Source: a virus (Duplodnaviria > Heunggongvirae > Uroviricota > Caudoviricetes). Taken from it: 19,166 bases of DNA. A program made the position numbers. Location of the stretch: the IMG/VR virus record IMGVR_UViG_2526164631_000041; one strand, given 5' to 3'. Below, piece after piece: positions 15,001-18,000 of the stretch; positions within the stretch are counted from its first letter, which is position 1, and every line of letters begins with the position of its first letter.

Positions 15001-18000
15001 TACCGGCTTTCTGTCCGTCCCAGACCACCAGTTTCCCGGTGGCTTCATCCAGCATCAGGGGCGTCAGTGCCGGTGTTGCCGAGGAAATCCCGCTGCTGCC
15101 TGTGGCGGTATGAGCCGGATCATTACCGGCAAAAATACGTACTTCCGCACGCTGTTCAGTGATGGTTTTCGTTACCATATTGTAAAAACCTCCTGTTGAT
15201 GATCAGCACTGACTTCATGGCATGGCCATGAGCATTTTCACGTCCGCATCACCGTCTGCTGACGTCTGTGGCACGCCACCCTGTACCGCTGCCGGTGAAT
15301 GGTTCGCCATGATGCGTTCAAACAGGGCGGTTGTGGATGCAGAGACCGGTTCTGCCTTACCTGATCTCGCAGCCAGCACAGCCCGGGCGCTCTCCACAGT
15401 CATTCCCGGGCAGGCAGCCAGCTGTTCAGCCTGCGCCTCAGCCCCTTTTGCCTCATCCAGTGCCATGATCTGATCACGGAGTGAGGGTCCGGCATCCGCC
15501 TGCGGTGAAGCAGCCAGGATCGGGCGGGCTTTTTCCACCGTCATCTCCGGCATCGCCGCCAGCGTTGCCGCCAGTTGTTCACGACCGTTCGCTTCTTCAC
15601 ACGCCATAATGCGATCGGCTTCACTCTGCGTGGATGCCACCGGCTGCTGCGGTGCCGCCGCGGCCAGAATCGCCCGGGCCTGTGCAACGCTCATGCCCTG
15701 TTGTCCTGCCAGCATCGTGGCAAGCTGTTCACGTCCTTTCGCTTCCTGGCATGTCAGGATCCCCATCACTCGCTGGTTCTCCTGCGCGGCGGCTTCCGTT
15801 GCAGTTAATTGCGGCATAGTGCCTCCTCTGACATTACTGTTCAGCGCCGTGGCCATCACACTGATGGCATCCGACGCATTGACTAATTCATCCGCCAGCC
15901 CGGCCTCAATGCCGGACTGACCTTCAAAAACGGCGGCCTCTGTTCCCGTGACAGCATCAACAGACAGACCGGTATACATCGCCACTTTTTCAGCAAACAT
16001 CCGGCGCGCCGCATCAATGCGCTGTTGCATGTCCTGGCGAACCTCTGCCGGCAACGCTTCAAACTGATTGCCATCCACCTTGTGCGCCCCTGAGTAAATC
16101 AGCGTGATATCAACACCGGCCTGCGCCAGATGACCGGCATAGCTGACATGGCTCATCATCACGCCAATGGAGCCGATACGGGATGTCTGGGTAACCAGCC
16201 GTCGGGAGCAGGCCGACGCCAGCAGCATGGCTGCAGAGCAGGCCGTGTCATTGCACAGTGCCCAGACCGGCTTCTGCTGACGGAGGCGGTAAATCATGTC
16301 AGCGCAGTCAAACGCGCCGGCGGCCTGCCCGCCCGGACTGTCAATGTCCAGCAGTACGCCCCGCACCTGGCTATCCGCCATTGCCTGCTGAAGACAGGCG
16401 ACAATGCCGTCATAGCCAGTCATTCCGGAAAATGGCCGCATCCCCCCCAGCCGGTGCACCAGCGTGCCGGTCACCGGCAGTACCGCAATACCGTTCACCA
16501 CCCGGTAAACACGGGCCGGTCGTTTACCTCCGGCCATGTACTCGTCCGTTTCAGCCAGCATTCCGGGAGCATCAAGCTGTACCTGCTGTTGTGGTACCGA
16601 AAGACTTGCTGCCCCCATCTCGCGCCCGAGCGCGCAAAAGAAAACCCGCGCATAGGCGGGCTCCAGAAGCAGCGGTTCATTGAATGCTGCGGCAATAATG
16701 TGTGAAAGATTACGTCTCACGTGGTGTTGTCTCCTCTTCCGGCCTGCGACTCTCCGCTATCTGCTGCTGATACGCCTGCGCTATCCACACCGGACGTGAG
16801 AGTCCGGCTTTTTGTCGCTCTGCAGATTCCCTGACCTGCTGGCGGAAAATGTCCTGATAATCCTCGCCCATCAGCGCCAGCTCTTTCTCATACGTGCTCA
16901 GTCCGGCCTCAATGCGCATCACTGATTCCTGGAACCTCCTTGAGCCCGTCAATGGCCATTCTTCCGGCTCCAATCCACTCAGCCCGTGACCAGGCTGATC
17001 GCGCCTAGATAAAAATCAAAACGTGCCCGTGGCGGACGAATAATCCCCCGAAGAAGTGCCTCTTCCAGCCAGCAGGAAAACATCTGCGTGGCCAGCCGGG
17101 ACGCAATAAATTTTCGTCGTCCCATAAAATAGCGCCATGACTCATTGGCGGATGCGCGGGCACTTGAATAACTGACCTTCGAGTAATCACGGGACAACTG
17201 TTCGTAGGAAACGCCAAGACCGGCGGCGATATACCGCAGCAGCGCCTGTTCAAGCGCCGAAAATCCATTGTCTGAATCCTGCGCGGTCTGAAGTTTCAGA
17301 TCATCACCGGGGAAAAGTGCGGAATTTTGACACCACCCAGCGTCACGCTATTCGTGTCATACCAGGTGGAGAACTTATCCAGAATATTAATAAGCGGATT
17401 ATCCTTCTGCCCCTGCGGCGCACCGGCGATATATTCTAAAGGCCTTTTTCGGTATCAAGGTCACTTTCATCGTCGCTGCATACATCGCCTTCACTATGGC
17501 CGACTGAAGCTGTGTTGCCTGCAGGGAATCGAGCATCTTCAGCCGTTCCATTTACGCTGTAAAACTGATTGGCCCCACGGGTCTGCCCGTCCTCCACCGG
17601 CTCGAAAATATGCAGCATGGCCGGACGCCCGGTGGGAAGTTCACGCGGGATCCGTTCCCATCGTCCACTCCCGGAGAACGGAAAATCATCCTCACAGATA
17701 TGGTACGCAACGGCACGACCATATCGATCGACCTCCACACCGGCCCGCAGAAAACGGTTCCCCATACCGTGTCCTGGCGTGTCCACCCGTTTCGGACTCA
17801 CGGCTTTAAAACGCGTACGAAACAGTTGCGTGCTCTCCGTATCCCAGACCGGCTGCACAAAGATTTCGCCGTTAAACGCATGAACGCCCACACCTTCACG
17901 AATAAATTCCGTAAACGTGCGTTTCTCTTCCACGTCGATCTCGCCAGACATCCCTTCGGCGTATTCCGACCAGGCCGCCTCCACCTCATCGACAAAACTT

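Follow-up and report, generated by a model that had tools for sequence, protein, structure and literature searches.

The tandem repeats in the head maturation protease gene of the viral DNA analyzed here (the window, 19,166 nt in total) are probably the Tri boxes, a segment of the phage 21-type gene 5 and of its nested gene 6 that is present in triplicate; the triplication is old and maintained, and we propose that its units are protein-docking modules. The repeats as such are already known. The GenBank record of phage 21 (M81255) annotates a Tri1 box, a Tri box and a Tri3 box, with the remark "function unknown", which correspond to positions 15647-15750, 15500-15610 and 15356-15469 of the window; through a gap-free alignment at 98% identity, these boxes coincide with the three units that we found independently. 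All features described below lie on the minus strand.

The protease gene and its nested scaffold gene

The repeats are encoded by an ORF of 501 amino acids (15215..16720) that is homologous to lambda C and to gene 5 of phage 21, with which it agrees in length and position. A Peptidase_S49 domain (Pfam PF01343, E = 1.5e-35) of the SppA/ClpP fold occupies residues 146-293 (15842..16285), as also indicated by the family alignment and by matches to the SppA structures 3rst and 4kwb (E ~1e-16). This domain includes Ser162, which is invariant across the 51-sequence family alignment and which we equate with the catalytic serine of lambda gpC. The full length of the protein is covered by PHROG 53 ("head maturation protease"), the overall identity to lambda gpC is 59%, and the AlphaFold model has pLDDT >90 at residues 110-290. 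The gene order in the window is of the lambda type, from portal fragments through the protease/scaffold gene to gpD-like (PF02924) and gpE-like (PF03864) genes, and recurs unchanged in a 99.7% identical, intact prophage. The gene is found in about one third of the complete E. coli genomes.

Within this ORF, and in the same frame, lies the nested scaffold gene, a homologue of phage 21 gene 6 and analogue of lambda Nu3, which encodes 200 amino acids from Met302 to Pro501 (15215..15817). Its ATG at 15817, just upstream of the first repeat unit, is preceded at a distance of 4 nt by a strong Shine-Dalgarno sequence, AGAGGAGG (15822..15829), where the ribosome-binding site is annotated in the phage 21 records; the AGGAGG-ATG arrangement is kept in lambda (M309) and in Salmonella prophage Gifsy-1 (M302). 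All 603 nt of the nested ORF align without gaps to phage 21 gene 6, with 10 substitutions (98% nucleotide identity), and both M81255 and OL657228 annotate it as the scaffolding protein, so the placement of the repeats by the first-pass annotation in the Nu3-like scaffold part of a lambda C homologue is borne out. The start signal and the annotation point to a putative separate scaffold protein that is translated from the internal start and shares its C-terminus with the protease. Its sequence identifies the locus as the gene 5/6 pair of phage 21, homologous to lambda C/Nu3.

The closest of the known systems is phage 21 itself (M81255, also OL657228), whose repeats were reportedly described earlier, by Smith and Feiss in 1993, and which carries the same gene of 1506 nt and 501 amino acids with the same nested 603-nt scaffold ORF. 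Unlike phage 21, the window contains a defective prophage of the EHEC/EPEC type, in which the portal gene is frameshifted and an IS66 element has inserted; thus, this particular copy of the repeats is under no current selection. Lambda gpC/Nu3 (NC_001416, 4418-5737 and 5132-5737) likewise pairs an S49 protease and a scaffold encoded in frame within its gene, in the gene order B-C-D-E, and gpC possesses both the unit (RIMGILNCEEAHGREEQARVLAETPGMTVKTARRILAAAPQ) and the tail motif DRLM. It differs in having one unit, with a 36-residue insert upstream, and the annotated start of Nu3, Met239, is inside the protease domain whereas the scaffold of the window starts after it. The lambda gpC homologue of Gifsy-1 (STM2605, 498 amino acids) has three units and a Shine-Dalgarno-ATG arrangement at Met302, and is 53% identical to the window protein in the scaffold part.

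Three diverged units and their predicted fold

Residues 317-455 of the protein hold three tandem units of roughly 40 residues, repeated at intervals of 150 and 141 nt and sharing the consensus ER.RI..IL.C.EAKGRE.LA..LA...GMTVE.AKA.LAAAP. As delimited by repeat comparison and AlphaFold, unit 1 (the Tri1 box, residues 317-358, 15647..15772) is separated by the linker QPVASTQSEA (15617..15646) from unit 2 (the Tri box, residues 369-407, 15500..15616), which the linker ADAGPSLR (15476..15499) joins to unit 3 (the Tri3 box, residues 416-455, 15356..15475). There follow a tail helix, TTALFERIMANH (residues 461-472, 15305..15340), that belongs to a family motif, and a C-terminal tail (residues 473-501, 15218..15304) that is predicted to be disordered except for the short helix DVKMLM (pLDDT <50 at residues 474-501). 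Unit 1 is the orthologue of the single unit of lambda by position and flanking sequence. The E. coli lineage has lost the near-invariant Arg from unit 3, where GAE replaces the GRE of the family; unit 3 of Gifsy-1 retains GRE.

The range originally noted for the repeats, 15283-15766 (residues 319-480), was described as three full copies and a partial fourth. The three full copies are confirmed: local BLOSUM62 scores between units are 80-97, against 25-28 ± 5 in shuffled sequences (z = 9.9-14.5), and none of 2000 shuffles reached the observed score. At the DNA level, the 34-codon cores of the units are 58-66% identical, compared to 28 ± 4.6% (maximum 46%) for segments drawn at random, in frame, from this gene, with 65-79% identity at codon positions 1 and 2 and 35-41% at position 3. 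The nucleotide periodicity is therefore detectable, though weak, and a self-comparison scan of the gene yields 150 and 141 nt as the top two offsets. Divergence at the DNA level, with the longest exact match between units at 8-9 nt, was too great for repeat finders to give anything useful: Tandem Repeats Finder reported no repeat at the three units, and an exact-seed finder recovered just fragments of 12-22 nt. As for the supposed partial fourth copy, which falls in the tail helix, the segment ERIMANHSP (residues 468-476) scores at z of about 0 and was rejected, having just 4/5 residues (ERIMA) in common with the unit starts. It aligns with the tail motif L...M.....P that is conserved in single-unit relatives as well, and appears to be better read as the tail helix of the family than as a truncated copy.

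With respect to structure, AlphaFold predicts three helices for a single unit modeled with an 88-sequence alignment (pLDDT 87), and three helical modules in the full protein, with the linkers between them at pLDDT <50 (residues 360-365 and 406-410). The predicted helices span residues 307-323, 331-339 and 345-354 in unit 1 (pLDDT 91-94), residues 367-376, 379-388 and 395-404 in unit 2 (at the lower confidence of pLDDT 54-76), and residues 414-419, 428-436 and 442-453 in unit 3 (pLDDT 83-92). These models suggest that each unit is a three-helix bundle and that flexible linkers string the bundles together like beads. Searches of BFVD matched other phage S49 proteases only, a PDB sequence search with the unit profile detected no relative, and no Pfam or NCBIfam model covers the unit; the unit can thus be viewed as a widespread domain with a confident predicted fold that is missing from both collections. 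Repeat modules that form three-helix bundles, such as the staphylococcal protein A domains, GA modules and UBA domains, are among the nearest known systems. The title of Medina et al. (2011), as cited in PMC11922011, terms lambda gpNu3 "intrinsically disordered" and, to the extent that a title can indicate it, the confidently predicted fold of the unit may form only upon binding.

Age and stability of the triplication

The unit profile detected 418 proteins among 1.84 billion representatives, and also matched lambda gpC. A single unit, located about 52 residues from the C-terminus, is present in 56 of the 58 full-length representative homologues, and both the unit and the tail motif are evident in the family consensus. 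Comparison of the unit number in relatives, which the first-pass annotation had called for, showed one unit in lambda and three in phage 21, Gifsy-1 and the window. Each of the 19 E. coli phage records containing the gene matches collinearly across three units. Among the four lineages with three units, the orthologues of unit 1 are 67-79% identical to one another and 40-61% identical to the other units, while units 2 and 3 retain a weak positional orthology and evolve faster than unit 1. Third codon positions between the units are nearly saturated, and the lineages of phage 21 and Gifsy-1 are 53% identical in the scaffold region. The triplication is older than the split between these two lineages. 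It has been maintained since, and the number of units hardly varies among E. coli prophages.

Population data were obtained from a scan of 5,426 complete E. coli genomes, 1,865 of which carry a total of 2,915 copies in which the boundary between units 1 and 2 is kept; variant alleles were counted with 40-nt junction probes matching <28 nt on either side. In about 98% of the 2,915 copies, the boundary between units 1 and 2 is intact and a 19-residue deletion, which removes half of unit 2, is lacking. The allele with this deletion occurs in 56 complete genomes and in more than 1000 contigs. Two-unit alleles are confined to 2 of the 5,426 complete genomes, two types with one genome each (~0.07% of the copies), and across E. 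coli sequences they show at least 5 distinct in-register breakpoints, with microhomologies of 5-8 nt at the deletion junctions read at the DNA level. In-frame length alleles concentrate at residues 326-392, where 14 distinct indels, including the 50-residue in-register deletions, were tabulated, and natural shortened alleles encode proteins of 451, 452 and 482 amino acids; nearly all the natural indel alleles affect unit 2, and all the tabulated ones leave unit 3 untouched. No shortened allele was found among the isolated, plaque-forming phages in the collection. Finally, a four-unit allele (551 amino acids) comes from two draft assemblies of one project with adjacent accession numbers (GCA_900537015.1 and GCA_900536945.1). 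It consists of an exact 150-nt duplicate that is bounded by N in both copies, and it has no match in the complete E. coli genomes, so it was rejected as a true expansion and is probably an assembly artefact.

These observations bear on the reading, built on the first-pass annotation, that the array is an unstable tandem coding repeat, prone to frequent homologous recombination that changes the scaffold length and to collapse in assemblies. The cluster of 14 in-frame indels, the 50-residue in-register deletions with their 5 breakpoints and the four-unit draft allele could be cited in its favor, and copy number does vary, both among relatives and in the rare two-unit alleles. It is not, however, "prone" to change, given the three units retained by about 98% of the copies, the collinearity of all 19 phage records and the same architecture in Salmonella Gifsy-1. 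Neither property expected of a VNTR was found: the copies lack high identity and long exact matches (58-66% and 8-9 nt), and copy-number variants among close relatives are rare. Identity between the units falls short of what RecA-dependent recombination or k-mer collapse requires, and exact matches of at most 8-9 nt make both unlikely; moreover, the single suspected artefact expands the array instead of collapsing it. The population counts have already largely refuted this reading, to which we accord very little probability. By the population data, such diverged coding repeats are stable and free of collapse in assemblies, and the four-unit allele is a caution against taking repeat counts from draft genomes.

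Candidate docking function and competing interpretations

In the interpretation favored here, the unit is a hallmark of the scaffold portion of the lambda-type S49 prohead proteases, occurring once in lambda and most relatives and three times in the phage 21/Gifsy-1 lineage. The same three units and tail would form the C-terminus of both the full-length protease and the 200-residue scaffold translated separately, and this common region would unite the two proteins inside the procapsid. Each unit could then be a protein-docking module for the major capsid protein and/or the portal, or for self-association, such that three copies would make the scaffold trivalent. In lambda, Nu3 might instead become multivalent by oligomerization through 70 extra N-terminal residues that are absent from the phage 21-type scaffold. 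A docking role is supported by the interactions of lambda Nu3 with E, with C and with itself, and by its requirement for portal incorporation (PMC3224144). The rare changes in copy number would be illegitimate, microhomology-mediated in-register deletions between units 1 and 2. Against a docking role, conservation of the I, A and L residues and of the EA.GRE turn may reflect purely structural constraints, and the half-deletion of unit 2 in 56 genomes indicates that three intact units may be dispensable. The lower modeling confidence of unit 2, the Arg lost from unit 3, the possible disorder of gpNu3 and the defective state of the prophage in the window weigh in the same direction. A more general proposition, in which the unit is a docking module for the capsid protein or portal throughout the family and its copy number (1, 2 or 3) is a tunable valency, is offered here as a tentative one that we consider possible but doubtful.

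Among the alternatives, the view that an old duplication left units 2 and 3 behind as functionally redundant copies, tolerated as spacers while one unit and the tail suffice, derives its appeal from the observation that lambda and 56 of the 58 representative relatives work with one unit. The truncation of unit 2 in the allele of the 56 complete genomes and >1000 contigs, the recurrence of two-unit hybrids, the faster evolution of units 2 and 3 and the loss of the conserved Arg from unit 3 are all compatible with it. Nevertheless, three units were kept since the split of phage 21 and Gifsy-1, all three are recognizable and predicted to fold, unit 3 is intact in every tabulated in-frame indel allele, and the plaque-forming phages of the collection carry no shortened allele; redundancy is, on balance, unlikely. 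We are decidedly skeptical that the triplication compensates for length, holding the scaffold at about 200 residues despite its later start (Met302 compared to Met239 in lambda). Phage 21 gp6 and lambda Nu3 indeed have 200 and 201 residues despite different starts and unit numbers, and the 36-residue insert upstream of the lambda unit is absent from the three-unit proteins. However, lambda also has a strong, conserved Shine-Dalgarno-ATG at the equivalent of Met302, which makes the actual products uncertain, and the equal lengths could be a coincidence. Finally, a nucleic acid-binding function of each unit as a helix-hairpin-helix-like module is hinted at by a weak match of unit 3 to the Pfam HhH model (PF00633, E = 0.0025). 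This match, at 18 bits, is below the Pfam gathering threshold of 24 bits, involves unit 3 only and lacks the second glycine of the hairpin, and scaffold proteins have already exited the procapsid when DNA is packaged into it; we attach next to no credence to this possibility.

Returning to the docking interpretation, a functional analogy, and only that, is provided by the P22 scaffold gp8, in which a small helical domain near the C-terminus binds coat. No relationship of gp8 to the unit was found in either sequence or fold, and P22 differs in having neither the protease nor the nested gene and in achieving multivalency by oligomerization rather than by tandem repeats. The multivalent forms of the P22 scaffold are trimers and tetramers (PMC12005531). 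Lambda and phage 21, both genetically easy phages, present a contrast between single-copy and triple-copy scaffolds. If docking and valency are as proposed, the natural two-unit hybrids and the alleles with a half-deleted unit 2 constitute a variant series bearing on procapsid nucleation.

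The repeats and the Tri boxes of phage 21

The repeats lie in a 501-aa minus-strand ORF (window 15215-16720), of which the range delineated by the first-pass annotation covers residues 319-480. Over its entire length, this ORF matches PHROG 53 ('head maturation protease'), and aa 146-293 form a Peptidase_S49 domain (E = 1.5e-35). It shares 59% identity with lambda gpC and is located between an upstream portal gene and, downstream, a lambda gpD-like decoration gene followed by a gpE-like major capsid gene. It contains three tandem units, namely unit 1 (RVMGILTCQEAKGREQLATMLAGQQGMSVAQARAILAAAAPQ, residues 317-358), unit 2 (DRIMACEEANGREQLAATLAAMPEMTVEKARPILAASPQ, residues 369-407) and unit 3 (DQIMALDEAKGAEAQAEQLAACPGMTVESARAVLAARSGK, residues 416-455), whose pairwise BLOSUM62 local scores of 80-97, compared to about 26 +/- 5 for shuffled sequences (z = 9.9-14.5), were reached by 0 of 2000 shuffles. 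At the DNA level, the 34-codon cores of the units are 58-66% identical (in-frame segments drawn at random from this gene give 28 +/- 4.6%), with the identity between units amounting to 65-79% at the first and second codon positions and 35-41% at the third. An internal periodicity is recovered in the DNA itself, with 150 and 141 nt as the top two offsets of a self-comparison scan; the repeat was missed by TRF and by an exact-seed repeat finder. The repeat is genuine, though an old one.

This feature is not new. A tblastn search of the phage collection with the scaffold part retrieved, among other matches, phage 21, whose head operon record (M81255) includes gene 5 (1506 nt) and, nested within it, gene 6 (603 nt), which is annotated with a dedicated ribosome-binding site and three internal repeat_region features, 'Tri1 box', 'Tri box' and 'Tri3 box', described as 'function unknown; putative'. 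The nested ORF of the window (15215-15817) is 98% identical to phage 21 gene 6 without gaps, and the projected Tri boxes (15647-15750, 15500-15610 and 15356-15469) coincide with the three units, so that our finding is a rediscovery of an annotated feature and the proposed location in a Nu3-like scaffold is confirmed. Met302, the putative internal start, follows AGAGGAGG with a gap of 4 nt, and the AGGAGG-ATG arrangement is conserved at Met302 of Salmonella Gifsy-1 and Met309 of lambda.

In lambda gene C, this strong signal, AGGAGG-(4 nt)-ATG (2523-2545 of the lambda sequence L002, about 5322-5344 of the genome), corresponds exactly to the start of phage 21 gene 6. Judging from the sequence, initiation at this candidate site would give a 131-aa product, shorter than the annotated Nu3, which starts at Met239 with a weak Shine-Dalgarno sequence. 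A newer phage 21 record (OL657228) carries two 'CII binding sites' on the opposite strand of the scaffold gene (positions 1224-1237 and 1458-1471 of the extracted locus); these were annotated purely by the pattern ttgynnnnnnttgy and are probably chance matches.

The partial fourth repeat of the first-pass annotation dissolves on inspection, consisting of just ERIMA, a non-significant match of 4 out of 5 residues. We read this segment as the tail helix of the family: a motif, L...M.....P, is conserved after the unit in a 51-sequence family alignment, including single-unit proteins, and the AlphaFold model has a separate helix at residues 461-472. The likeness of ERIMA to the starts of units 2 and 3 (DRIMA and DQIMA) probably reflects a patch of homology at the original duplication boundary.

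Copy number, stability and age of the units

Close relatives in the protein collection display many in-frame length alleles. These include 451-aa forms with unit 1/unit 2 hybrids (exactly 50 aa deleted, with breakpoints at aa 326, 329, 345 or 351), a 452-aa form (49 aa deleted at aa 357), a 482-aa form (19 aa deleted inside unit 2), a 472-aa form (29 aa deleted), several with 1-7 aa deleted, and a 551-aa form in which a 50-aa insertion yields four units. All 14 distinct scaffold-part indels map to aa 326-392, and none of the tabulated indel alleles disrupts unit 3 or the first helix of unit 1. The junctions read as DNA show short microhomologies (GAAGCGAA, CACCGCAG, GCCCG and CTGGC), and exact matches shared by two units reach at most 8-9 nt; we infer that the deletions arose by illegitimate (slippage or microhomology) or homeologous recombination rather than by RecA-dependent exchange.

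To estimate allele frequencies, 5,426 complete E. coli genomes were searched with probes of 40-41 nt that are unable to seed on wild-type alleles. The intact unit 1/unit 2 boundary was found in 2,915 copies (1,865 genomes), the 482-aa allele in 56 genomes, and the 452-aa allele and the 451-aa allele with breakpoint 345 in a single genome each; the 451-aa allele with breakpoint 326 and the four-unit junction were detected in none of the 5,426. The gene is exactly 1506 nt long in 26 of 27 matches with at least 97% gene coverage (from a spread sample of whole-gene matches), and all 19 E. coli phage records with the gene match collinearly over the three units. Both 551-aa alleles (gene positions 1174-1473) come from draft assemblies with adjacent accession numbers (GCA_900537015.1 and GCA_900536945.1) and contain an exact 150-nt tandem duplicate with a single N ending each copy. 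Given the absence of the four-unit junction from complete genomes, this allele is probably an artefact of scaffolding or gap-filling.

Hence variants arise, but unit number is near-fixed at three in the phage 21-type lineage. The suggestion that the repeats are prone to recombinational copy-number change holds insofar as rare change is real; proneness is opposed by 2,915 intact boundaries against two-unit alleles in 2 genomes. The further notion of an unstable repeat that causes assembly collapse is contradicted both by how far the units have diverged and by the population counts.

Larger rearrangements were also observed: P0001 (657 aa) has a 156-aa internal duplication that begins where the protease domain ends and extends into unit 3, and in P0080 and P0084 (721 and 577 aa) the sequence after unit 3 is unrelated to the scaffold tail. 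These homologues may represent prophage-prophage rearrangements or misassemblies.

A profile built from all three units matched 418 of 1.84 billion representative proteins (E <= 0.001). Among the best 150 of these 418, 58 are full-length (350 aa or more), of which 56 have one unit, ending about 52 residues before the C-terminus as in lambda; of the other two, P0123, a 57%-identical homologue, has three, and the last corresponds to an E. coli allele of the gene that carries a deletion. Three units are also present in Gifsy-1 and in the diverged scaffold-like proteins P0121 and P0124, and two in the distant proteins P0165 and P0248. By position and flanks, the single lambda unit is the counterpart of unit 1. 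Unit number is therefore not universal in the family, even if near-fixed in the phage 21-type lineage. In a comparison of four lineages with three units, the orthologues of unit 1 share 67-79% identity among themselves and 40-61% with other units, and positional orthology is weaker but retained for units 2 and 3; the triplication is therefore older than the split between these lineages. The two nearly identical tandem units in P0130, a fragment from a different lineage, indicate an independent, recent duplication. No other feature of the scaffold part is as conserved family-wide as the unit, which is covered by no Pfam or NCBIfam model; Nu3-like PHROGs, annotated 'capsid assembly protein' and 'head scaffolding protein', give three matches to it.

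Predicted structure and putative function of the units

AlphaFold2 models a single unit as a three-helix module (helices 2-14, 23-30 and 37-46 of a 58-residue query; mean pLDDT 87 with an 88-sequence alignment of units). The full-length model (mean pLDDT 81; 51-sequence alignment) has a confident protease domain, confident units 1 and 3 (83-94), a lower-scoring unit 2 (54-76), and pLDDT below 50 in the linkers (299-305, 360-365, 406-410 and 455-460) and in the C-terminal 28 residues. In this model, the units are arranged as beads on a string, and are predicted to fold independently, with flexible linkers between them. The sole Foldseek matches among viral models were other phage S49 proteases, and no PDB sequences related to the unit were found.

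The three units and the tail occur both in the protease (gp5) and in the scaffold (gp6), which is translatable on its own. In lambda, the interaction partners of Nu3 are E, C and Nu3 itself, and the protein is required for the portal to be incorporated (PMC3224144). We propose that the unit is a putative docking module for the capsid protein and/or the portal, or for self-association, which would bring scaffold and protease together in the assembling shell, with three tandem units then providing three binding sites per chain; the S49 protease would then degrade the scaffold once assembly is complete. Unlike gp6, lambda Nu3 contains about 70 residues from the C-terminal helices of the protease, and would achieve multivalency by oligomerizing. 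The title of a paper cited by PMC11922011 terms gpNu3 intrinsically disordered, which suggests that the unit might fold only upon binding.

The common 482-aa allele cannot form an intact unit 2, so that three intact units may be non-essential, and redundancy of units 2 and 3 is possible. The nearly equal lengths of gp6 (200 aa) and Nu3 (201 aa) are suggestive of a triplication that would compensate for length. An HhH-like, DNA-binding role is very unlikely, the one pointer to it being a sub-threshold Pfam HhH match obtained for unit 3 with GAE.

Unit 3 of the E. coli/phage 21 lineage (window 15356-15475) carries this GAE in place of a GRE that is shared by nearly the whole family and is kept in unit 3 of Gifsy-1, P0121, P0123 and P0124.

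State of the prophage

The portal gene, a homologue of lambda B and phage 21 gene 4 (window 16710-18305, minus strand), is split into three or more ORFs. Relative to an intact prophage with 99.7% identity (L003), about seven single-base indels cluster at 16931-17551, with almost none elsewhere in 13 kb (one lies at the right-hand extreme of the window); the cluster points either to a pseudogene or to sequencing errors confined to this patch. The left end (1-6214) has no match to the reference prophage. Here, a lambda I-like tail gene (5476-6156) is directly followed by an IS66-family element (2740-5327) and by type III effector-like genes, namely an NleB/SseK family gene (1422-2153), an NleC-like M85 peptidase fragment (1099-1437) and an OspG/NleH-like kinase (1-705). 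The distal tail(-fibre) genes thus appear to have been replaced by the IS66 element and the effector genes, so that the prophage looks defective and this copy of the repeats seems to reside in a degraded prophage.
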